64,000 nt of DNA from Octopus vulgaris (taxonomy: Eukaryota), in contig OX597840.1 of assembly GCA_951406725.2 (NCBI GenBank), positions 19,592,001-19,656,000 of the forward strand. The letters are read 5' to 3'. A model generated the notes under the pieces. The model was not told the origin of the DNA and searched no databases. It saw nothing but the letters and a program-made list of their open reading frames with translations. Made by a program: the position numbers and the translations under genes. Numbering within the stretch: the first letter of the stretch is position 1; each line of letters begins with the position of its first letter. Below, one piece after another: positions 3,997-62,817 of the stretch.

Positions 3997-4592
3997 GGCG
4001 GCGAGCTGGCAGAATCGTTAGCACGACGGGCGAAATGCTTAGCGGTATTTCATCTGCCGTTACGTTCTGAGTTCAAATTCCGCCGAGGTCGACTTTGCCT
4101 TTCATCGTTTCAGGGTCGATAAAATAAAATTAGTACCAGTTACGCACTGGGGTCGATATAATCGACTTAATCCGTTTGTCTGTCTTTGTTTGCCCTCTCT
4201 GTGTTTAGCCCCTTGTGGGTAGTAAAGAAATAGGTATTTCGTCTGCCGCTACGTTCTGAGTTCAAATTCCGCCGAGGTCGACTTTGCCTTTCATCCTTTC
4301 GGGGTCGATAAATTAAGTACCAGTTACACACTGGGGTTGATGTAATCGACATAATCCGTTTGTCTGTCCTTGTTTGTCTCCTCTGTGTTTAGCCCCTTGT
4401 GGGTAGTAAAAAAATAGGTATTTCGTCTGCTGTTACGTTCTGAGTTCAAATTCCGCCAAAGTCGACTTTGCCTTTCATCCTTTCGGAGTCAATAAAATAA
4501 AAATTAGTACCAGTTACGCACTGGGGTTGATGTAATCGACTTAATCCCTTCCCCCTAATTTGAGGCCTTGTGCTTCCAGTAGAAAGGATTAT
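3997..4592 (+). mobile_element. tRNA-derived SINE, family 2, with internal ~185 bp tandem modules
   Basis: ggcggcgagctggcagaatcgttagc head and gagttcaaattcc B box; body repeats starting at 4044, 4233 and 4417; core gcctttcatcctttcggggtcgataaattaagtaccag resembles the Meta-SINE domain. Confidence 0.8.
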
Positions 4593-5210
4593 TGCCCTGA
4601 GTCGATTAATGCCTTGTGAGTGAATTTGGTCGATGGAAACTGTGAGAAAGCCCAGATGTATATATTAATAGCACGGGGCCGTTAATTTCAAAGAGAAGCA
4701 GTTTGTTGATTGCATGGATCGCAGTATATGACTGGTACATATTCTCTCGGCCCTGAAAGGGTGAAAGCCAGAGTTAATCTAGTCAAATATAAACTGAGAA
4801 CGTTATGAATGGAAAAAAACACCACTAGGGATTTTGTTCGACGCACTAAACATTCTTCCAGTTCGCTGCCTCGCTAATTGCTAATTTTAAAAACATGTAA
4901 CTATGTATATTTTTTTTATTTACATTTATAATTACTTGTTTAAAGTAATTATAATTACAGATATTTATTATAAATTTATGAGGAAATATTTAAAGAATTA
5001 AAAAAAAGTTGGGAAAATGAATAATTAAAATAAATGCGTGGCTGGGTGGTAAGAAGCTTGCTTCTCAACCACATGGTTCTGGGTTCAGTCCCACAGCGTG
5101 GCACCTTGGGCAAGTGTCTTCTACTATATCCTCGGGCCGACCGAAGACTTGAGAGTGGATTTGTTGGACGGAAACTGAAAGAAGCCCTGCTTATATATAT
5201 ATATATATAT

Positions 5211-5840
5211 ATAATAGTTATCGCCATACTAATATGGCATTCTTATAAAAATAAGAATAAAGCTGTCCGCTTATTAGCTCCATGAGGCCATTGCCTTAAG
5301 TTAGCTATTTGATACACAAACTGTATCCATATAACCTTCGAACAAGGGAGGTCAGTCGCTCCACACTACTTGACCGGCAGCTACAGACGCGTTTCGGGGT
5401 ATTACCCCTTTTCAATGTAGCGTAGCCAGACCAGTAGGTGTCGCTTCTGACAATCTCTGTTCGAAGGTTTTATTTACCTAGCTTCGGTGGAATACATCCA
5501 CTTGTTTTCAATAATAGAAATATTAAAATTACTAAGTCTCTCTAAAAGAGAACAACGGCAGCATTTCCGGAAAATAATAGTTATCGCCATACTAATATGG
5601 CATTCTTATAAAAATAAGAATAAAGCTGTCCGCTTATTAGCTCCTTGTTCGAAGGTTATATGGATACAGTTTGTGTATCAAATAGCTAAATTAAGGCAAT
5701 GGCCTCATGGAGCTAATAAGCGGACAGCTTTATTCTTATTTTTATAAGAATGCCATATTAGTATGGCGATAACTATTATTTTCCGGAAACGCTGCCGCTG
5801 TTCTCTTTTAGAGAGACTTAGTAATTTTAATATTTCTATT
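5211..5840 (-). mobile_element. Hammerhead-bearing non-autonomous element (retrozyme/Penelope pLTR-like): 363 bp unit plus partial direct and inverted copies
   Basis: ataatagttatcgcc at 5211 and 5574 (period 363); inverted copy at 5645-5840 spans the unit junction; (TA)n on both sides. Confidence 0.8.
5380..5421 (-). ncRNA. Minimal type I hammerhead ribozyme, U3-A8 variant core
   Basis: gctaca TTGAAAA gggg-taata-cccc GAAA cgcg TC tgtagc: 6 bp stem I, 4+ bp stem II, palindromic helix III (ACGCGT), GUC cleavage triplet. Confidence 0.8.
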
Positions 5841-6384
5841 ATATATATATATATATGTATGTATGTATGTATGTGTGTATACACACGTATATATAAATAT
5901 ATATATATATGTGTGTGTGTGTATGTGTGTATGTCTGTGTGTTTTCCTCCACCACCACTTGTCAACCGGTGTCGGTGTGTTTACAACCCCGTAACCTAAC
6001 AGTTCAGCAAAAGAAACCCACACACTAAGTATCAAGCTTTAAGAAGAAAACAAGTCCTGCGGTCGATTCATTCGACAAAAAAATTCTTCAAGGCGGTGCT
6101 CCAGCATGGCTGCAGTCAAGTAAAAGATAAATGGTAAATGACAAACGATTTGGTTCAGAACCACAAAAAAACCTTTCGGGATTACGGCCCCGTCAGATGA
6201 CCGTGAACTTTAGAGGTGGCTTCCAACACTGAAACAGGGTTCCCTTTTTAACGAACGTCCCTTGGGGGTCTTAGAATCATTAAAAACGCATAAGCCCTTT
6301 AATTATTTTAATGGATTGTGAAGCCCTAAGATGCAGCTTATTTATATCTGATTCCGGTAACTGTTTTGCGCACACAATCAGCCG

Positions 6385-6640
6385 TTACCTCAGTGCTTCC
6401 ATACATTCCACCCCCCTCACACACACACACACACAATTGTTCTTACGTTAGTGCTTCCATATATTATTTCGCATAAACTTGTCCCCTCAACGCTTCCGTA
6501 CATTACCTCACTCAAACCAGCCGTTGTTGCATCAGTGCTTCCATATATCATCTCACGGAAACTTGTTGCTTCGATGCCTCCATACATCGACTCACGCGCA
6601 ATTAGCTGTTCTTACTTCAGTGCTTCCATACATTACATCA
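6385..6640 (+). repeat. Degenerate minisatellite, six copies of a gcttccatacat core
   Basis: Cores at about 6395, 6453, 6492, 6537, 6576 and 6622; spacing alternates 39 and 45-46 nt. Confidence 0.7.
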
Positions 6641-6699
6641 CACTTACCCGCAGGAGTTGCCCATTTCCATGGCTACAGCCGTGAACCAATGGTAGCCGT

Positions 6700-12579: not shown

Positions 12580-13200
12580 TTAGGGAGTAGGCGCCTCATG
12601 TGCCCTTTTGGTATATGGACCTTTAGTTTCCTGCCACCTCGGTGATTTCCTTTTTGGCAACAAGATTTGTCCTTGCTGTAGCAAGCCAAAAAGAAGCCAA
12701 TACGGTATATCAGTCTGACCTTCCACAGTCCCTTTAAACATACACATCAATTGGTTCCTATAAAATGTCAGCTTCTTGTACCAATACCCAACTATTAGGT
12801 CCCTTCCAGGTGCCTTCCCATTCTGCTGTTTGCCTACTACTATAGCGAAGGTTTCTGCATCAGTTTTGTATGTCTTACAGTATTCTCTCTCAGTCGTATT
12901 TAACCATGTTGCATTCAGGTTGAAATCACTCTTTTCGTTCCAGAATTTGTACCAGAATGTTTGTAGATCTTCTTGAGAAGGGAGCTTTCTTAATGCTGAT
13001 ATTTTTCCTTCCTCATCTCTCTGTATGATGCTTGTGAGTTGGAAGCAAACTTGTGATTGATACTGACTCGCTCGAACATTTTCTTCCCCGTTGATCTTTA
13101 GCTTTATGTTGATATCCGCTGGGCAGCAGATTTCCACAACTATATACAGTTTCTCTTCTTTATCCCAAATCACGATGTCGGGTCTATTATGTTCACATTT
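12580..13200 (-). pseudogene. R4/Dong-like LINE fragments (RLE endonuclease piece plus pre-RT region)
   Basis: KCEHNRPDIVIWDKEEKLYIVVEICCPADIN (RLE PD..D/E motif) and FWYKFW...NGKAPGRDLIVGYWYKKL...IPYWL (RT N-terminal region). Confidence 0.7.
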
Positions 13201-13907
13201 TATTGAGTATTTTCACTGGGACATTGCACCAGTTCTCCTTTTTTTTATTATGAGCGGCTATGGCTTCTAATGACTGTCTGTCTGTATGTATGCGTGCATT
13301 TGTGTGCATTTGTGTGCATATGTGTGTATGTGTGTGTAAGTGTGTGTGAGTGTGTATATGCGCGCAAACGCACTCGTCTGTATATTTTTCTTTATACTTA
13401 TATTTCATTCTATTAACCCCTCGTTCTTCCGTTGCCCTATTTCTAACCTGTTGTTGTAGTTATGGTTGTTGTTGTTGTTGTTGCTGCAATTTTTATTTGT
13501 TGTTGTTGTTGTTGTTAGTTGCACTAAAAAGTAAAAAAAATATGCCGCTTTAGTTTTTTTTCGTGTTTTTTTTTATATTTACTTTTCAAATGTTTTTTTT
13601 ATTGTTAAAGACACTCCTTTCTTGTGAGCAAACAACAGGATGTAAAAAAATGTCTCATTTATATGTGTATACACACACACACACATGTCTATATTATGTA
13701 CGTGCATGTACATACAAAGACAGACACGCACGCACACATATACATACATATATATGTATACCCACTCACACACACATATATATATGTTCATACATACGCA
13801 TATATACATATGTAATTTTATATACATGCACACATATACAGATATATGTTTGTATGCATATATATGTATATATATGTATATATATGTATATATATGTATA
13901 TATATAT

Positions 13908-17724: not shown

Positions 17725-18722
17725 CACTGAGGTTGTGACCATGCTGGGTGATTACACTGACGGTGTACAAGGTGATCACCTTTTAATTGGCTAATTCTAT
17801 GTTATTGGCTTTTGATGAAGGGGGAGTTCGACATGCTGCCCTCTTTTGGGTTTCCTGCCTGGATATTGGCCCATCTGGGATCTTGGTTAACAGGAGGTCA
17901 AGTTGTTTTTTGAAAACATCTAACCCCCATTCCTGCTCTGTGGAGATCCCTCAGATATTTTGGCAAGGCGTTAAATAGCTGTGGGCCCTTGAACCCCAAG
18001 CTATTGCAGTGCATGGTTCTCACCTCAGATGGGACAGCTTGGGACAGTGCAGCGACGTCCATTTCGAGGTCTGGTATAGCTCTCAATCCCAAAGATTGGT
18101 GTCAGCCCCTCCAGTGTCTTCCACACATATATCTCTGCATACTTCTCCCGTCTTCGCTTCAGGGAGTAGAGTCATAGCTCTTTCGGTCTCTCCCAGTAGC
18201 TCAGCTGTTCCATTGATGCAATCTTCCTTGTGTAGCATCACTGAACCGCCTCATGTTTCGCTATTAACCTGACACTATAACATGACCACAGTTGAGAGCA
18301 GTAGTCCAGAGGGCTGAGGACAAATGTCCTGCAAAGGACCAACATAGTTTCCTGATCCGTTGTTCAGAAGGCTCTCAGAATCCATCCGGCCATTCGCCTG
18401 CACACTGTCACAATCTTGGTGAGATGCATGTGAAACGAGGCATCTTTGCTCATATCAATCCCAAGATCCCACACCATATGTGATTCTGGGATTTCCGCTC
18501 CTTTCAGTCCAAAATATCGTTGTTGCGACTTCTGAGCACCAATTATCTGGTAGCGAAGGGCTTGGAATTTGCCTGCATCAAATTGCATGTTGTTGTCCTC
18601 AGCCCGTTTATATATGGTATCAAGGTCTTTCTGTAGAAGATTGGCATCAGAAGGTTCCTTGACAGCTTGTACTACTTTTGAGTCGTCGGCATAGCTAGAG
18701 ACGGGTGGCTGTTTGTGTAACT
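17725..18722 (-). pseudogene. CR1/L2-group LINE 3' remnant (RT C-terminal half), frameshifted
   Basis: SYADDSKV...LQKDLDTIYKRAEDNNMQFDAGKFQALRY...DLGIDMSKDASF...MAGWILRAF, then NSLGFKGPQLFNALPKYLRD. Confidence 0.85.
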
Positions 18723-18723
18723 G

Positions 18724-18791
<68 letters not shown>

Positions 18792-18830
18792 AAAGGGTAA
18801 AATTTTACCCTTTTATTATTGTACAATATC

Positions 18831-36681: not shown

Positions 36682-37520
36682 TTATTTAGCTACATGAGTA
36701 CCATTTCGACGGATAACTTCAAAAATTCTATTAGTCATGGAATCTGTCAATTCCTTAATAGCAGCGGGTTGGACTGCCTCTGCTGCAGCTTTGATGGTCG
36801 GCCATAAAACATCTTTTGGCGTAAATTGGCGTCTATCGGCATAAACATCTTGTTTAATGATGGATCAAAGATTCTTGATAGGGTTGAGATCCGGAGATGC
36901 TAGCGGCCACACCGTCAACCCTTCACCTTGTATGTCGTAAGACCCTAGGAATGTTTGGGTGGTCCTGGCAGAGTGGGAGGGAGCGTTGTCATGCATGAAT
37001 ACGAGATTCCTTAGAAGTGACAGTAGTATGTCATCTCGGCAGGGATCCAAGACCTCCTTCAGGAGATTGCAGTAGGCGGCCGCGGTCACTTTAACCCCTT
37101 CAGGCTCACCCTGACTAGACCAACAAGTCCTGTCCTTAATGATACCAGCCCAAAACTTGAATCCTCCACCATATCGTTTACGTTGTAAACGTTGGTGACA
37201 CTCATCTTCAAAATAGACCCGAACATTTGCCCAACCGTCATGTCCGTCAAGGGTGGCCCTGGTTTCGTCAGTGAACAGAACACAACTCATGTCAAACGTC
37301 ATGTACTTTTTTGGGCCCATTGAAGCCTCAAACTCCTATAACGAGGCGTTAAAGGAGGCAATCTCAGGGGTTCTTGTACGGAAGCCATGGTGCCGAGGAT
37401 GCGATTTCTGGTGTTTTCGGTACATGAAGAAGTCCGGAGGCGGTGAAAATAGCTTTGCTTATTTACCCAGATTTCCCACGTAACTTACGGCCAATATTCC
37501 TTAAATTCCTAGCTGTCACA
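36682..37520 (-). pseudogene. Tc1/mariner transposase remnant with DD37E (TRT-like) spacing
   Basis: VLFTDE...WAGI...FMHDNAPSH...WPLASPDLNPIKNL*; 37 residues lie between the second D and the E position (now K); the reading continues past the stop as SIIKQDVY...RNGTHVAK*. Confidence 0.85.
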
Positions 37521-40565: not shown

Positions 40566-41035
40566 TAATAGTTATCGCCATACTAATATGGCAGTCTAAA
40601 TATAAGACTAAAGCTGTCGCTGATTAGCTCCAAGAGGCCATCGCCTCTAGCTAGCTATATGACACACGAACCTGCGTCCATTACAACCTTCGAACAGGGG
40701 AGGTCAGCCGCTTCACCTTGCTAGTCAGACATCTGCAGACATGTTTCAGGGTTGCTGCTCTTTATCAATGCAGCGTAGTCAGACTCAGCAGGTGTCGCTA
40801 CTGACCGTCTGTTCGAAGATTTTATTTACCTAGTTACAGTGGAATACATCCACTTGTTTTCAATAATAGAAATATTAAAATTACTAAGTCTCTCTAAAGG
40901 AGATTATGGCAGCGTTACTGGATATTAATAGTTATCGCCATACTAAAATGGCAGTCTTATAAATATAAGACTAAAGCTGTCGCTGATTAGCTCCAAGAGG
41001 CCATCGCCTCTAGCTAGCTATATGACACACGAACC

Positions 41036-41036
<1 letters not shown>
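40563..41036 (-). mobile_element. Second subfamily of the ~360 bp hammerhead element (1.3 tandem units)
   Basis: gttatcgccatacta at 40571 and 40931 (period 360); homologous along its length to 5211-5643; flanked by (TA)n and (TTA)n. Confidence 0.8.
40733..40773 (-). ncRNA. Minimal type I hammerhead ribozyme, U3-A8 variant core
   Basis: ctgca TTGATAA agagcagcaaccct GAAA catg TC tgcag; ACATGT palindrome; one mismatch in stem II. Confidence 0.7.
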
Positions 41037-53114: not shown

Positions 53115-56100
53115 CTACAGGATCATGCTCAAAATGGTTTCGTTACTAGCACGCACTATCTTTGCAACATTCACCCATCTTTTTTTGAATCTTTCGCGAG
53201 ACAAAACTTCCCTCTCCATTCTCACCTTCCTTTTCAAGTGGTACTTGAAAAAGTTGATGAGCGATTGGCCAGAGAGGTAAGTGTTTGTCTCTAATCCTTT
53301 CGCTCGAGTCCACCACACACATTCTTTCACCATGGCCACCAGTACGATGAAAACTGCCTTGCCTTCCCGGTTGAGGGAAGGGGGCGGAGCAATTCTCACG
53401 ATAGACTCGGCCGATAGGCGGAATCGTCCCACACGTGACAGCAGCCGTTCGGCATAAGCCCACAGGTCGGAAATGGTTGGACATTGCACGAGTGCGTGCA
53501 GAACGGTTTCGTCGCTCTGACCGCATCTCGGGCAAGTCGGTCCAGTGTGTCTGGAACCGTGTCTGTAGAGCTTATTCCGAACAGGTAATGCTTCTCGATA
53601 GCACTGCCAGGCCAGGGATCTTTGGTGATTGTTCATAGGTCCCGGCCCGAAAGTTGTCCTGAACAGGCGGGTCAGGTGTTCCTCGTCGACGCCCAGACTC
53701 TGCCCGAGTTCGTCGTCGCACCTCCCCTCCACTAATCCTCTACAGAATGCCTTTGTTGTGATGGAGTCGCACAAGTTCGATCCCGGACGGCAGAGTTGCT
53801 TGAGAGCAAAGCGACACTCGCGGTGCCATTCGCCTAGCCTCGGTCTCTGCTTGATCCATGACTGTAGTTCGTCCAAGGAGACGAGCTGCGGGAAAGCGCG
53901 CCGCACAAAAGGCGACCACACCTGTTCACCGTTGGTTATGAAGCGCCGGAGATGTCGCAGTCTCAGCGCATCTCTGCGCATCATCAACCACGGCATGCCC
54001 AGCCCTCCATTTAGCGGGTGTTGGCAGCAAATGGATCGCCTAACCATCGGAACGTTTCCCTTCCACAAGAAGCGGAAGAGTATACGTTCCAGTTTGGTGA
54101 TGGTAGGGTCGGGACAAGGCACGACGGTCAGACGATACTCGATGACGGATGCGATGTACGCGTTCGCCACCTCCGCCCGACCTTTTAGGGGTAGCTTTCT
54201 CTCAGCCCATTTCTGGGTGAGAGTAGCCACCCTAGTCGTTATCTCGCCCCAGTTCTTCTCCATTTGGAGGTCCGGACCGAACCAGACCCCGAGCAATTTA
54301 ACCGGTCCGTCCGTCCAGCGTCCCACGATGGAGACACTGTTGGACGGCATGGGCTTGCTTCTCCAGGTGCCGAGCCGCAAGCCCACTGACTTTTCCCGGT
54401 TAATTTTTGCTCCCGTTACCGCTTCGTATTCTTTTAGTGTCTCGCCGACCAGCTCGATGTGCTGGTAGCTCGACACTATGACGGTGACGTCATCCGCGTA
54501 TGCAGACACGCTCCTCCCGCATCCCAGCTCTCGTGGGATGCCCCTCAGCGTCGCCAGTTTCCGCAGTAGTGGCTCAAGAGTCAGTACATACAGCAGCGAT
54601 GAGAGGGGGCATCCCTGACGAACCGAACGCATGATATTAAAAGGTCTGGATAGATGACCATTAACGCGAACTACTGAGCGGATGCCGCTGTATAAGGCAG
54701 CGATCCAACCGCGGAAAACTGGACCGAAACCAGCCGCTTTAAGGACAGCCTCCAAGTAGTGATGGTCTACCCTATCGAAGGCTTTTGATTGATCCAAATT
54801 GATCAGCACCCCACCCATGCCAGGATTTTTAACTACCCTGTCTATGATGTAGCGCATCAGATGGAGGTTGTCATGAATACTTCTACCCGGCACGGCGCAT
54901 GTTTGCGCCTTGTCGATTAGTTTCTTGATGACAAGCGCCAACCTCTCGGCTAACACCTTGGCCAAAATTTTCAAATCTGCATTGAGCAGAGTGATGGGCC
55001 TGAAATTATCTATGACGTCCCCCTTGTTTGGGTCTTTCTTGATCAGTGCCACTGCTCCTCGCTTTACAAAAGCAGGAATACTCCCGTTCTGCTGCCAGTT
55101 GCAGTAGACAGCTGCCAAGACGCCTCCAAACAAGTCTGGCATATGAAAATAAAGTTCGTAGGGCAGACCATCCAAGCCTGGTGACTTGTCTCTCGCGCAG
55201 GCTACCATCGCATCCTGTACATCCGCAGCTGTGATAGGCTTTTCACAAGACTCCACCTCTCTTGCTGAGAGTCGTGGCAAGGCATGCAGGTAGGCACTAA
55301 AGTCCACTCTGCGTTCTGACTCACCACTTGTCCCAAACAGTTGGGTGAAGTGTTGTTGAAAAGCCCCACACATGCTTTTAGGCTCGAGCAATTCGCGCCC
55401 CTGTTCATCTATAAGAGACTTGATGGTGGCTCTGTTGCCTCGTTGCGTCTCCACCACTCGGGCCTCTTGGGCGGCTCCAACTCCTTCGTTCCTCAGAGCA
55501 CGCATCCTAGCTCTGACAACGCATCCTTCGTGTTTGGCGTTGAGGTGTTGGTCGAGGGCCAATCTCGCCGCCAGCACGTTGGACGCGATGCCAGTTCTAA
55601 GTGCCTCTTCTAAAACCTTAACTAATTCTCCCTCTATTTTATTTCGGTCTAATGCTAGGGCTCTACTGTATCTGACTGATTCTGCTTTAATTGCTTTTTT
55701 TAGGGCATACCACCATCTGTTGTTGATGATGGTACCCGTCAAAGTTCTCTTAACTAATGTGCTGATCCGGTCCCTGTAAACCTGTCGTGCTGTAAAAGAC
55801 GCGTTCAGTTTCCAGTAACCAGGACCCTGCCTATGTGTCTTATCTAAGTCAAGTGTACAAGTCACAAACTTGTGATCTGTGTAACTGACTATATGAAATT
55901 GTGGACAACCTACACTATTTTTATCTATTGTCCTACAGAATACTCTATCTAAGTATGATCTGGACGACCCGATGCGGTTACTCCATGTCCACATTGGCAC
56001 ATTCGGGTGGTCCAGTCGGTACCTGTCAGACAGTTGGAAACGTCTGAGCAGGTCTTTGAGGCATTTGCATCCCCTTCTATTGCTATCTCTGCCCACGTAG

Positions 56101-56570
56101 TCTAGATGCGTGTCCAGGGTGGCATTCCAATCCCCCACTAAAAGTAAAGGACGAGACGTTCCCATGAAAGACTCTAGACGTCGAAAGAAATCTGGTCGGC
56201 CTGTTAAGGACGAAGCATAAACTGCTATCAGTCGAAAAGCACACTCATTGCTGCCATCGACATCCAAAACGACCAACCTACCCTCCGGGTCTAGGAAATT
56301 TGCTCTTACTTTGAGATCCAGACTCTTCTGGATAAGCACCGCGATACCACCTCCGCCCATTCTCGGTAGACACGGAGAAAAATAAATGTTGAAATATGTA
56401 CCGAAAATGTGCTGGAGTGCCCGCAAGCTGTGGAGTCTGGTCTCACTGATGGCTATGATATTCAGATTTAGTGACTTGATGTCATTTAACAGGTAGCCTT
56501 GTTTCCAAGGCGACCCCAAGCCACGTACATTTATACTACCTATTCTGAGCATGTTCCGATAAAAGTGCAA
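53115..56570 (-). CDS. LINE ORF2: APE endonuclease + reverse transcriptase + CCHC finger (1151 aa)
   Basis: SINVRGL, ISETRL, VGDWNA, YLDRVF, YTDHK (APE); KSPGLDGL, FRPITLLN, DQSKAFDRV, RQGCPLS, YADD (RT); CPRC-x8-H-x4-C. Confidence 0.96.
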   Translation of the reverse strand: MHFYRNMLRIGSINVRGLGSPWKQGYLLNDIKSLNLNIIAISETRLHSLRALQHIFGTYFNIYFSPCLPRMGGGGIAVLIQKSLDLKVRANFLDPEGRLVVLDVDGSNECAFRLIAVYASSLTGRPDFFRRLESFMGTSRPLLLVGDWNATLDTHLDYVGRDSNRRGCKCLKDLLRRFQLSDRYRLDHPNVPMWTWSNRIGSSRSYLDRVFCRTIDKNSVGCPQFHIVSYTDHKFVTCTLDLDKTHRQGPGYWKLNASFTARQVYRDRISTLVKRTLTGTIINNRWWYALKKAIKAESVRYSRALALDRNKIEGELVKVLEEALRTGIASNVLAARLALDQHLNAKHEGCVVRARMRALRNEGVGAAQEARVVETQRGNRATIKSLIDEQGRELLEPKSMCGAFQQHFTQLFGTSGESERRVDFSAYLHALPRLSAREVESCEKPITAADVQDAMVACARDKSPGLDGLPYELYFHMPDLFGGVLAAVYCNWQQNGSIPAFVKRGAVALIKKDPNKGDVIDNFRPITLLNADLKILAKVLAERLALVIKKLIDKAQTCAVPGRSIHDNLHLMRYIIDRVVKNPGMGGVLINLDQSKAFDRVDHHYLEAVLKAAGFGPVFRGWIAALYSGIRSVVRVNGHLSRPFNIMRSVRQGCPLSSLLYVLTLEPLLRKLATLRGIPRELGCGRSVSAYADDVTVIVSSYQHIELVGETLKEYEAVTGAKINREKSVGLRLGTWRSKPMPSNSVSIVGRWTDGPVKLLGVWFGPDLQMEKNWGEITTRVATLTQKWAERKLPLKGRAEVANAYIASVIEYRLTVVPCPDPTITKLERILFRFLWKGNVPMVRRSICCQHPLNGGLGMPWLMMRRDALRLRHLRRFITNGEQVWSPFVRRAFPQLVSLDELQSWIKQRPRLGEWHRECRFALKQLCRPGSNLCDSITTKAFCRGLVEGRCDDELGQSLGVDEEHLTRLFRTTFGPGPMNNHQRSLAWQCYREALPVRNKLYRHGSRHTGPTCPRCGQSDETVLHALVQCPTISDLWAYAERLLSRVGRFRLSAESIVRIAPPPSLNREGKAVFIVLVAMVKECVWWTRAKGLETNTYLSGQSLINFFKYHLKRKVRMEREVLSRERFKKRWVNVAKIVRASNETILSMIL

Positions 56571-56592
56571 AAAAGGAAAGAGAGAGAAAAGG

Positions 56593-58615
56593 TTACTTGT
56601 TTTTCGAAAGTTCTTTGTCTTTCACCTCACGGTCTTCTTCTATGAGGCTTTTGTACAGTTTTTTCGATGAGTACTTTTGAAATCTCCCTACTGCATCAGG
56701 GTAAAGAGATTTCAGGGTGCTGTATGTGTTCTGTGTCACGTGTATTATTTTAATGTGTTGTGGTGGTGTTGTGTGTGGGTGGTTACTTGTTTTTATGTCG
56801 TTTTCAGTAATGTTAGTGTTTGACCTAATGTGTTCCATTAGGTCGTGGTTGTTTGTGTTTATGGCTGTCAACATTGTTGGGGGGTTTGATGATGGTGTGT
56901 TTGTGTTGATGCGTGTGTTTTCTGTAGATGTTTTTGTTTCGGGAGTGGTGTATCTTCCCGTTTTGTTTGTTATTTTTTCTTTTCTTTTTTTCCCCTTTTT
57001 CTTCTCCCCCCTGTGGCTATTTGCCAATCTTCCGTGTCTTCTTCGTCTAATGACAAATCAGACGAATCGGAGCCTGGAAGAGGGAAAATATTGGGGTCTA
57101 TTGTCGACTGTGTTGATTTTGTTGTTGGTGTTGGTTGGTGAGCGTTTGGTTGTGGTGTATGCGGTTTTGGAGGCGGGGTTTGGGTATTTTGTGTTTGAGT
57201 GATTGTAGGTATTGTTGTGTTGTTTGGGGGCTCAAATTTGTGGGGATTTGGAGTTGTAATTGTTTCTTCATTTTTGCTGGGTGTCTTTTTGGCAGATGTC
57301 CTTGATTTGGGAGTTGGTATATTCTTGGTTGTTGTTGTTGGTGATGCTGCTTCTGTTCTTGGTCCTGCAGTTGGTGTGGTTGTTTGTTTGGTGAGGTTTG
57401 TTCCTGCAAAAAGTGGTGTGGGTAGTAAACCTTGTTTATTTGTTTTTGTTTCCGGCTGCTGTTGTTGTTGCTGTTGTTTTCTTGCGGCAGATTTGCAGTC
57501 TTTTTTAGGTGTTGCTCACTGCCGCATATGTAGCAACGTGGTCTTCTGCCATCGATGACCACATATAACTTGTGGTCGTCTGATACACATATCTGGGTGG
57601 GTATTTTTTTTATATCTTCATAGTAAAAATAGTAAAATTCGTCATTTTTACGCATAAGGCCTTTACAAGCCATAGATTATTGGCTATTTTGGGGACATTG
57701 TTTAAAGTGATCTTAGTCACTTTCAGTCCCCGATAGCTTGGTGTAAGTTGGAGTTCATCTGAGTGAAGAGTTAGCGTTGAGAAACGTCTAGCTAACTCTT
57801 CGGTGTAGAAAACAACTTGTATGTGGGCAAATTTGTTCCACCAGGTTACATATTCTTTGTGATTCCAGATGGGTTTCAAGCACTTCTCTATTTTGCTTGT
57901 GTTAGCCTTCTCTGGGTTTTTTGTTTTTTTGTTAACTATTTTATAAATGATTGTTCGTCTTTTTTCATCTTCCAAAATCTCTTCTGGTATGTTTATCTTC
58001 ACTATACCATCTGATTCTGTTATTTTAATGTTCGTGTCCTGTATTTGTTGAGCCGTAAAATATATTGTTGTTTTTTTTTTCTTTAATCGCCTCAGCGAAA
58101 TTTGTTGTTGTTTTGTTATTGTTGTTGCTTGTGGCGATGTTGTTGTTGGCTGCAGTTTGTAAAATTGGTGTGTTTGGTCTGATTGTGCAAGTAGGAAGGG
58201 GTGGAAAATTATTTTCGTAATTTATTCCTGTACTCAAGCAGCTTTTGTCAATTTGTTTGGTAGCTACAGATTTTTGTTTATTCACTTCAGTTCTTGTTGT
58301 TGGAGTGAAACAGGTCTGAACGGAATTGTAGTTGTTGTTATTGTTGTTTTTGTTGTTGGTGGTGGTGTCAGTGGCAGAAGAGGTAGCCGAGGCAGCAGAT
58401 GTCGAAATGGTGGCGCAATTTTTATTTTTGCTGTCATTGTTATTGTTGTTGCTGTTGGTAGTTGAGGTAGTGGATGAGGTGGCGGCGGTGGTGGTGGTGG
58501 TGGTGAAGGCGGTGATGGCAACAGTAGATGTGTCTATGTTGTTCTTGCTAGTGGCGGTGTTGGTGACAATGCTGTTACTACACGTAGTAGTAGCGTTCAA
58601 TGCACATTCATTCAT
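56593..58615 (-). pseudogene. LINE ORF1 (gag-like, zinc knuckle), split by several frameshifts
   Basis: Collinear fragments 58615-58025, 58002-57610, 57673-57098 and 57027-56593; CYICGSEQHLKK(DC) knuckle is restored by +1 A in an A6 run. Confidence 0.75.
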
Positions 58616-58927
58616 AATTTTACGTCGCGCGCAAAATTCTTTTTTTCTCCTAGCGTTTCCAGTCTAGGAGAAATCTGGTCGATAGAGGAACGCGACCATT
58701 GTTCCACGATAAAATTTCTAGACATTTTCTAATGTCGAGAATAAAATTACAGAAATGAAATGGGGTCGAAACTGCCCCTAGGGGCGAATTCCTCCCTTGG
58801 AAAAGCACTCAAATGAAAGTTGGGTGCCTTACACAACTTATTCACAAAAATGTACAGAAAAATTGGGCTATAAATAGTCAAAATAAAGAATTACCTTCGG
58901 AGTCGATGAGACAACACATCCATAGAC

Positions 58928-60789: not shown

Positions 60790-62817
60790 GGTATTGGGCC
60801 AGTATTGGAGTAGAGTGCTAAGTACACATGCCTGGTAAATCTTCATTTTTGTGGTCTTGGTCAGCTTATTGTTGTCCCATGCGCGTTTGGTGAGTTGGGC
60901 CATCACAGCAGCTGCCTTGCCAATGCGTATATTGAGCTCAGCATCAAGGGATAGGTTGTAGGTGACGGTAGAGCCAAGATAGGTAAACTTCTCCACCTCC
61001 TATACACTGTGGTCTCCAATATGTATGTTTGGGATGTCCGATGTAGCCTGACCCATGATGTTGGTCTTCTTGAGGCTGATAACTAAGCCAAAGTTGCCAA
61101 ATGCTTGCTCAAAACAGTTGCTGTGCCTTCGTAGGGCTTCTTCTGTGTGTGATACCAGAGCGGCATCATCAGCAAATAGCATCTCCTTGATCAGGATGCT
61201 TCTGAAATTTTGGTCTTGGCACGCAGACGCGAGAGATTGAACAGTTCCCCATCACTTCTACTGTGCAGAAACACTCCACCATCTGATGTCTCAAAGGCAT
61301 GTGACAGCAGCAGCGAGAAGAAGATGCCAAATAATGTAGGAGCAAGGACACAACCTTGCTCTATCCCATTTTTTATTTGGAAGGCGGCTGATGTTGAACC
61401 ATTGTGCTGTATGGTGCCTTGCATATTAGCATGGAATGATTTGATGATCCTCAGCAGCTTTGGTGGACATCCGATTTTTTGGAGCAGGATGAAGAGGCCT
61501 TTTCTACTTACCAAGTCAAAGCCCTTTGTCAGATCAATGAAGGCCATATATAATGGCATGTTCTGCTCTCTGGACTTCTGAAGTTGGCGTATGGAGAATA
61601 TCATGTCAATAGTTGATCTGCTTCTAAAGCCACACTGCGATTCTGGATAAATTCTAGAAGCAATTAGTTGCAGCCTGGACAGGATAATGCAAGCAGAGGC
61701 CTTTCCAACTGTGCTTAGAAGAGATATTCCACGGTAATTGTTACAATCATCACGGTCACTTTTATTTTTGTAAAGCGTAATGATGTTAGCATCCCGCATA
61801 TTCTGAGGGACTGTACCCTCTTACCTGCACTGACACAGAAGCTCATGAATGTGCCGAAGCAGGATGGTGTTTTTGCCGGTTTTGATGATCTCTTAAGGGG
61901 ATGCCGTCTTTTCCCGGAGCCTTGTTACTTGCTAGGGAGTCAATAGATTTGGTGAGCTCTGCTATAGATGGCAGACTGTCAAGTTCACACATGACTGGCA
62001 AGATCTTGACACCCTCGATTGCAGCCTCAGCTACCGTGGTCTCTCGTGAGTAGAGATCCTGGTAGTACTCCATCCATCTATCCATTTGCTTGCTTTGGTC
62101 CCTGATGAGATCTCCAGTAGTTGATTTCAGAGGGGCTGAGGTATTTGCGGATGGACCGAGGGCCTTCTTCAAACCGGCATACATCCCACGGGTGTCGCCA
62201 CTGTCAGCAGCTGACTGGATACTCTGACAGATTTCCTTTCAATACCCATTTGCATAGCGTCTGGCAGTCAGTTGGGTTTTATTTCTTGCCTTTCTGAGTT
62301 CTTCGTGTGACTTTGTAGAAGAACCACTCTTGTATTGCATCAGAGCTGTACGCTTTGCTTCGATAACTGGTTCCAGCTCTGAGAGCCCAGCACTGAACAA
62401 AATCTGGGTTTTACCTTTCTCTCATTCCGAAAGTAGCTATTGATGTGGTATACAAAGCTTCCCTGATATAATTCCACCTACTTTCAGCAGAGGAGGTTGG
62501 GCAGCTACTGAGGGCAACCTTGATAAAAACAGCAAAACATTGTCGCAGTGTAGGGTTCGAGGTTCTGGCAGTGTTAATGCGTGGTTGGCTAATTTTCTTG
62601 GAGTGATGGACTTTTTAGGCAGAATCCTCACCCTTCTTATTAGTGAATGATCTGTCTCACAATCCGCGCTACGGGTCAGTTGAACAGAATTCAGAAAGGA
62701 TCTTCGTGTAATGATGAGATCCAACTGATGCCAGTGGTGAGATCTTGGATGTCTCCAAGATGCCTTGTGGGATGTCTTGTTGGGAAAGAATGTGTTGGTG
62801 ATGCACAGGTTATGCAC
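60790..62817 (-). pseudogene. RTE-clade (BovB-like) LINE remnant with multiple frameshifts
   Basis: WRHPRSHHWHQLDLII, KAPGKDGIP, NYRGISLLS, PESQCGFR, AFIDLTKGFD, QGCVLAPTLF, LFADDAAL, FTYLGS. Confidence 0.92.

Follow-up and report, generated by a model that had tools for sequence, protein, structure and literature searches.

A young, high-copy family of hammerhead-bearing tandem units in Octopus vulgaris, likely a retrozyme trans-mobilised by a Penelope-like element of the Neptune type

Introduction

Within a window of 64,000 nucleotides of the Octopus vulgaris genome, we analysed a repeat located near the left end and the family to which it belongs. The family is young, high-copy and non-coding, with thousands of copies. 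It is built of 363-nt tandem units with a conserved hammerhead fold of the U3-A8 type, and is likely a non-LTR retrozyme that is trans-mobilised by a Neptune-type Penelope-like element (PLE). Comparisons with published systems draw on the accessible parts of the papers cited.

Results

The window copy consists of two inverted arms in a (TA)n tract

Unit positions (p) were counted along the hammerhead-sense strand, so that the window coordinate equals 5574 - p. The insertion spans 5211-5842 and comprises two arms joined head-to-head, with both 3' ends pointing outward into (TA)n:

5031-6135, plus strand: host, a dispersed SINE-like repeat with the insertion in its internal microsatellite
5192-5210: left target tract, (TA)n
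5211-5573, minus strand: 363-nt unit, non-coding, GC 40%, strongly self-paired
5211-5647, minus strand: arm A, 437 nt, unit 290-363 followed by a full 363-nt unit (1-363); its 3' end (fixed end 1, unit position 363, CTATTAT) adjoins (TA)n
5643-5647: head-to-head junction of the arms, 2-5 nt of microhomology, at the junction hot spot of the family (palindrome, unit 227-239)
5643-5842, plus strand: arm B, an inverted 200-nt copy, unit 227-363 followed by 1-63, without the hammerhead; its 3' end (fixed end 2, unit position 63, CTATTAT) adjoins (TA)n
5780-5842, plus strand: 63-nt 'tail', which separates one fixed 3' end from the other
5843-5935: right target tract, (TA)n / (TG)n

A non-coding 363-bp unit with a partial direct repeat and an inverted copy reading across the unit junction had been predicted here, and this layout was confirmed; the right end lies at 5842, not at 5840 as originally given. 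The direct repeat (5211-5284 and 5574-5647) is 74 nt long, with 99% identity at a spacing of 363, and the inverted pairs (5211-5347 with 5643-5779, and 5511-5647 with 5706-5842) measure 137 nt each, with 98-99% identity. The longest ATG-started ORF on the circularised unit has 38 aa. The two arms disagree at unit position 19, which is polymorphic and not a CpG. By analogy with an Anolis PLE, in which two start sites of reverse transcription (RT) define the tail (Frangieh et al. 2024, PMC11167929), the 63-nt tail is likely bounded by two such sites. The microsatellite of the host repeat measures 49-103 nt in six other window copies, as opposed to 746 nt at the insertion; a (TA)n target hides target-site duplications.

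A second family member, 82% identical and of subfamily D, lies in the same window:

40566-41036, minus strand: single arm ending in (TA)n

This copy has the U3-A8 core and a CAUG palindrome, and its stem II is damaged. It is flanked by (TA)n and (ATT)n tracts.

The unit carries a type I hammerhead with a U3-A8 core

5380-5421, minus strand: type I hammerhead with canonical helix sizes, core UUGAAAA at 5415-5409, stem II at 5408-5396
5391-5388: CGCG palindrome of the hammerhead, replacing a stable stem III; predicted cut at 5386/5385
5370-5432, minus strand: stem I extended distally by an internal loop (UAC / U) and a further helix, with a two-sided change in helix 1

The minus-strand hammerhead with a UUGAAAA core was found where it had been proposed, and U3-A8 holds throughout the family. 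The motif shows a three-way junction, a 3-UGANx-A9 core, an NUH cut site and a Watson-Crick pair between positions 3 and 8 (UUGAAAA / GAAA / GUC), as expected of type I. Stem I of the window hammerhead has 6 bp and stem II 4 bp, followed by GAAA and by UC before the predicted cut. The minimal form originally suggested does not apply, as the helices are canonical in size and the motif departs from the minimal PLE hammerhead (long helix II, short helix I, a loop 1 that is ill-defined, and one additional base before helix II). The internal loop of distal stem I is likely the loop-1 partner of loop 2, in a putative tertiary contact. Loop 2 of the window copy has a private C>U change at 5404, and the exact 42-mer occurs once in the genome.

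U3 and A8 were present in all 42 hammerheads from loci chosen by similarity, and in 23 of 23 when the units were taken to span the subfamilies. Position 7, the free position, varies between A, C, U and G across the family. An A6G change, which likely inactivates the hammerhead, was seen in 4 of the 42. Rfam gave no hammerhead match at E ≤ 10 for the window copy or for a subfamily C copy, presumably owing to the variant core; the view that the motif escapes standard searches is correct for Rfam. Its novelty, in turn, had been overstated. U3-A8 is a published natural covariation of positions 3 and 8 (Perreault et al. 2011, PMC3088659; Cervera & de la Pena 2014, PMC4209133), for which these papers state activity in vitro, and about 1,300 U3-A8 hammerheads are reported in Cercyon PLEs of Schistosoma mansoni (PMC4209133). 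The Schistosoma motifs are minimal and mostly single PLE motifs, whereas those described here have helices I and II of canonical size, and lie in a tandem non-coding unit, U3-A8 being found in the resident Neptune as well. U3-A8 in canonical-sized motifs may already have been covered by Lunse et al. 2016 or in supplements.

The predicted fold is stable and shows compensatory changes

The minimum-energy fold of the minus strand has -128.3 kcal/mol (z -8.4), and none of 100 shuffles was as stable. It contains the long-range pairings and local hairpins named in the original prediction. In a circular fold, pair probabilities are 0.94-1.0 for stems I and II and 0 for stem III as a monomer. The monomer is thus predicted to be stably self-paired with the hammerhead free to form, as in retrozymes.

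For covariation we used 23 natural units picked to span subfamilies 11-16% apart. Two-sided changes occurred in 5 of 17 hammerhead pairs, and these are spread over stem I and its distal extension, stem II and the palindrome. Of the cells in this set 96.9% were paired; slid controls reached 52% at most. The palindrome of stem III changes from CGCG to CAUG between subfamilies, and G-U intermediates are present among the RNA-type covariation. Over the whole unit, 13 of 88 pairs had two-sided changes, well above slid controls; these counts are of sequences that reflect few subfamily splits, not of independent events. The covariation foreseen among copies was therefore observed for stems I and II and for the stem III palindrome, across few independent events.

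The family is present in thousands of dispersed copies

The genome searched comprises 2.8 Gb in 227 contigs. A DNA search returned 1,588 candidates, with best identities of 98-99% among the 40 that were scored, and a subfamily D query returned 2,877. The motif TTGANAA-N11-24-GAAACGCGTC had at least 1,748 matches in the genome, compared with 9 for a reversed control. The same motif with C3-G8 had 14 matches, against 8 for its control, and C3-G8 relatives with the same 3' half were accordingly dismissed as being at chance level. A version with the CATG palindrome gave 2,828 matches (control, 203), which combine subfamily D units with Neptune hammerheads and chance hits.

Except for one deletion copy, units are 359-365 bp long, and subfamilies A, B, C and D differ by 9-16%. 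Like retrozymes, the family has tandem non-coding units within 150-450 bp, GC below 50% and one type I hammerhead per unit; it is dispersed and multicopy, lacks LTR structure and does not form the end of a coding element. Family sequence is present in runs of six organisms, and none of these runs is recorded as RNA. The unit is covered, and its junction bridged, by contigs of four runs for which an RNA origin is no more than a guess; these contigs cannot reveal strand, ends or level, and we do not take them as evidence, since repeats ride in other transcripts.

Insertions have two fixed 3' ends that are paired by a near-invariant rule

The anatomy of insertions was determined in a set of 115 loci, from which 18 were removed as overlapping duplicates and 13 as C3-G8 controls. 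Matches at 83 of the 84 loci kept gave 84 insertions, one of which was cut by the locus edge. The 83 insertions classified were two-arm head-to-head (56), single-arm (23) or complex (4), and none was tail-to-tail. In 46 of the 56 two-arm insertions, an end at about unit position 63 was paired with an end at about 363; the other 10 had one non-canonical end. In a second set of 28 loci, which had been selected on their junction patterns (7 duplicates left out), 22 of 23 two-arm insertions paired end 63 with end 363. Together, all 68 classifiable two-arm insertions (of 79) paired unlike ends and none paired like ends; the 11 with one non-canonical end could hide more like-end exceptions. Among 26 subfamily D loci read by eye there were 11 unlike pairs, 3 unclear cases and 1 like pair, at L218, where both arms end at the tail end.

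Both fixed ends read CTATTAT, both lie in predicted loops and they are 63 nt apart; 126 of 129 canonical 3' ends adjoin TA-rich sequence. Arms are truncated at variable points on the 5' side, and their 3' ends are fixed. Circularly permuted ends had been put forward as a check; copy ends are not freely permuted, and these two fixed 3' ends are used instead. The combination of a partial tandem, an inverted 5'-truncated copy, a tail at one end and a microsatellite target is the insertion signature of PLEs; the layout of tandem, inversion, tail and (TA)n is known for these elements (Craig et al. 2021, PMC8557442).

Arms extend to about 5.5 units, head-to-tail and without spacer. At least two hammerheads are present in 30 of 149 arms, and one in the window insertion. 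The predicted cut site is read through by 113 of the 149. No arm ran into shared upstream coding sequence at the 83 loci, the 28 loci or the 26 subfamily D loci. Copies that are the ends of longer elements, which would have spoken against the original prediction, were found neither among the 83 nor among the 26 subfamily D loci.

Most arm junctions overlap by 2-5 nt. In 28 of the 68 unlike-end pairs neither arm fits inside the other, and because of this fold-back copying cannot explain these pairs; fold-back self-priming as a general origin of the second arm was rejected for them. Arms start in unit 221-240 in 25 of 149 cases, compared with 5 of 149 in unit 181-200, the region of the predicted cut. 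Junctions exactly at the predicted cut numbered 5 genome-wide; a control site at unit 203 had 12 matches, many of which resemble substitutions, and no rate was derived from them. No footprint of a cut linear RNA was seen among the 149 arm starts or the genome-wide junctions. A search for junctions at site 227 returned 69 matches, and the 30 fetched were 13 true junctions and 17 one-base deletion variants. Several insertions join both arms exactly at the unit 227-239 hairpin. The palindrome together with microhomology accounts for the hot spot at 227 more simply than a transcription start there.

The hot spot at unit 227-239 (window 5347-5335) has the form of a CCTT-N5-AAGG hairpin, in whose centre lies the palindrome TTCGAA. 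Two insertions have unusual surroundings: at L077 a flank of at least 30 bp is duplicated on both sides, and at L192 long inverted flanks lie outside the element.

Units of the same insertion share haplotypes

Templates were compared in 66 subfamily A insertions. Units diverged by 0.9% within an arm, by 1.2% between arms and by 2.6% between insertions, and concordance at 20 polymorphic sites was 97.6, 95.6 and 70.7%, respectively. Among 184 alleles private to one insertion, 13 were in all covering units, 3 in some and 168 in a single unit; the latter are later mutations. Opposite arms had five private alleles in common, of which the window copy holds one, and at L034 and L077 private alleles were fixed across 4-5 units. 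This sharing fits a template that was copied repeatedly, be it one monomer or a homogeneous array. Together with read-through arms and arms of about 5.5 units, the shared haplotypes support the original proposal of a retrozyme-type family whose template was circular or multimeric.

A Neptune-type PLE is the candidate driver

A GIY-YIG search of the genome returned 6,136 candidates, of which 150 were scored. It revealed a young PLE family with a 781-codon open frame that encodes an RT and, at the C terminus, a GIY-YIG domain; the frame was intact in 16 of 16 loci picked for frame length. An intact autonomous PLE is thus present in the genome. Its linker reads CxxxxCxxC, a motif that we take to mark the Neptune clade. 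Along with the domain order (PMC8557442), this linker marks the family as a putative Neptune-type PLE. Its loci (L146-L161, on several contigs) include many intact copies with a long 3' UTR that has internal repeats.

Near its 3' end the Neptune-type PLE carries a minimal hammerhead with a UUGAUAA core, also U3-A8, and a CAUG palindrome as in subfamily D. Copies end in (TA)n at a short end or at an end 35 nt longer, and all four inverted pairs combine a long with a short end, the latter slightly mutated in two of them. The tails differ in length (63 nt in the retrozyme, 35 nt in Neptune). CTATTAT is common to the long ends of both, which could be chance in AT-rich DNA. We detected no homology of the unit to the Neptune pseudo-LTR or 5' region (p 0.13-0.99; BLAST also none), a result that does not support a derivation of the unit from the pseudo-LTR of the resident Neptune. 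The unit was a terminal repeat at none of 30 plus 20 GIY-YIG loci, the sole match being a separate insertion beside one of them. Moreover, (TA)n ends are shared by at least five further GIY-YIG PLE lineages. Since homology was not detected and other lineages share the target, the link to the driver is one of shared traits and not of demonstrated descent. The case for Neptune as the named driver is circumstantial and consists of the core variant, the target and the end pattern seen in both sequences.

In other GIY-YIG PLE lineages (L131, L137, L136, L119, L143 and L165), reading by eye revealed motifs resembling hammerheads close to the (TA)n ends; some of the cores are odd, and one has GCAA for GAAA.

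Other features of the window

An uninterrupted LINE ORF2 of 1,168 codons with AP-endonuclease, RT and zf-RVT domains lies at 53115-56621 on the minus strand, and an ORF1-like region may lie upstream of it, at about 56700-58700. A 184-bp SINE-like segment is present in 2.7 tandem copies at 4044-4547, and an 84-bp tandem repeat with a recurring CAGTGCTTCCATA motif in 2-3 copies at 6385-6652. Judged by eye, the ORF list shows broken pieces of RT/LINE sequence and part of a Tc1-like transposase at 61191-62817, 12580-13212, 18364-18804 and 36865-37335, all on the minus strand.

Discussion

The octopus family agrees with non-LTR retrozymes in every sequence-level feature that we tested. Such retrozymes have non-coding tandem units of 170-400 nt (about 350-390 bp in mussel), GC under 50%, no LTR, co-existing PLEs, a strongly self-paired unit and a type I hammerhead with a 6-bp helix I and a 4-bp helix II (Cervera & de la Pena 2020, PMC7229834). 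Their core is C3-G8 and their arrays are long, whereas the octopus family has U3-A8 and is inserted in (TA)n chiefly as short, inverted pairs of arms. Retrozymes have been proposed to be non-autonomous derivatives of PLEs (Li, Clavereau & Pollet 2026, bioRxiv 10.64898/2026.07.22.740005). There, as here, tandem hammerhead units co-occur with Neptune/Poseidon PLEs and trans-mobilisation is suggested; the vertebrate link, however, is homology to the pseudo-LTR, whereas we detected none to our candidate, and the classes listed in the accessible part of that preprint include no mollusc. With endonuclease-containing PLEs, the Neptune clade among them, the octopus insertions share partial tandems, an inverted 5'-truncated copy, a tail at one end, a bias towards (TA)n, palindromes where the inverted copies meet and, probably, two RT start sites that bound the tail (PMC8557442; PMC11167929; Arkhipova et al. 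2013, PMC3846280). Unlike these PLEs, they have no ORF and a tail of 63 nt, not 30-40. The strict use of one site per arm (68 of 68) also contrasts with the Anolis PLE in vitro, for which no difference in start site between target strands is described (PMC11167929). Outside supplements, our search found no publication that describes the octopus family, a U3-A8 retrozyme or the strict pairing of ends. What is added beyond prior work is a Neptune with the same U3-A8 core and TA target, the strict pairing of ends and the sharing of haplotypes within insertions.

We infer transcription, dimer cleavage, circularisation, trans-mobilisation and two-site priming by a protein dimer, as follows. Tandem copies would be transcribed, adjacent hammerheads would pair via the stem III palindrome and cut after GUC, and the monomer would likely be ligated into a circle. 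A Penelope RT/GIY-YIG protein, probably a dimer, would then bind the RNA near the two CUAUUAU sites and cut both (TA)n strands. For the Anolis PLE, a protein dimer is predicted, both target strands are cut and the hammerhead is protein-assisted (PMC11167929). Each target end would prime RT from a different site of the same RNA, possibly for more than one round, and microhomology would join the two cDNA ends. The window copy is probably a dead-end product because its single hammerhead does not allow release of a monomer by two cuts in cis. Possibly, the circular retrozyme RNA tracks the ribozyme chemistry of its driver, with which it has the rare U3-A8 core in common, and one Neptune dimer primes both target ends from the two tail sites of one circle, around which both would run; we offer this more specific model tentatively, as conceivable but rather unlikely. 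The hammerheads of subfamily D and of Neptune, both U3-A8 with CAUG, could cut as a mixed dimer.

Whether a circle is copied at all bears on an alternative that we regard as unlikely, in which a non-autonomous PLE derivative is copied from uncut linear multimers of homogeneous arrays, the hammerhead being slow or otherwise used. The cut site shows no excess of junctions and is read through by 113 of 149 arms, as this alternative would have it. In the Anolis system, moreover, the main template in vitro is uncut RNA and hammerhead mutants leave insertion unaffected, so that the protein-assisted ribozyme is dispensable there (PMC11167929), and only 1 of 9 retrozyme dimers was cleaved, 8 of 9 Xenopus dimers showing no cleavage (bioRxiv 10.64898/2026.07.22.740005). 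A homogeneous source array would also yield shared haplotypes, although private alleles that span 4-5 units (L034, L077) are most simply explained by repeated copying of one monomer. Uncut templates also leave aside that stems and palindrome are kept by compensatory change, and related retrozymes of coral, mussel and axolotl give circles (PMC7229834).

The identity of insertion layout with that of autonomous PLEs would equally suit solo pseudo-LTRs, or 5'-truncated ends, of an undiscovered autonomous PLE, and about 140 of the thousands of loci were inspected. We nevertheless judge this very improbable: units follow one another with nothing between them, up to 5.5 units, no arm at the 83, 28 and 26 loci extends into shared upstream coding sequence, and the unit is nowhere a terminal repeat at the 30 plus 20 GIY-YIG loci. 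Still less credible, to the point of being hardly tenable, is a DNA-level repeat (a MITE-like foldback or satellite) that spread by DNA transposition or recombination and resembles a hammerhead by chance. The inverted arms do look like terminal inverted repeats and local conversion could homogenise arrays, but 5' truncation is variable while 3' ends are fixed, the sites of the two ends differ, single arms account for 23 of 83 insertions, and the covariation is of the RNA type with G-U intermediates.

A non-LTR retrozyme moved in trans by a Neptune-type PLE is thus the reading that we favour. Which enzyme moves animal retrozymes, and whether circles serve as template, are posed as open questions in PMC7229834 and in bioRxiv 10.64898/2026.07.22.740005, as far as the accessible text goes. 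If the model of one dimer on one circle were true, the mobiliser of an animal retrozyme would be identified and the inverted-plus-tail layout of all PLE insertions explained. In an animal genome, C3-G8 patterns and Rfam overlook thousands of hammerheads. The value of the family lies less in its core variant than in the young retrozyme-PLE pair that this genome offers, in which the near-invariant use of one start site for each arm and one haplotype for each insertion can be tested in vitro.
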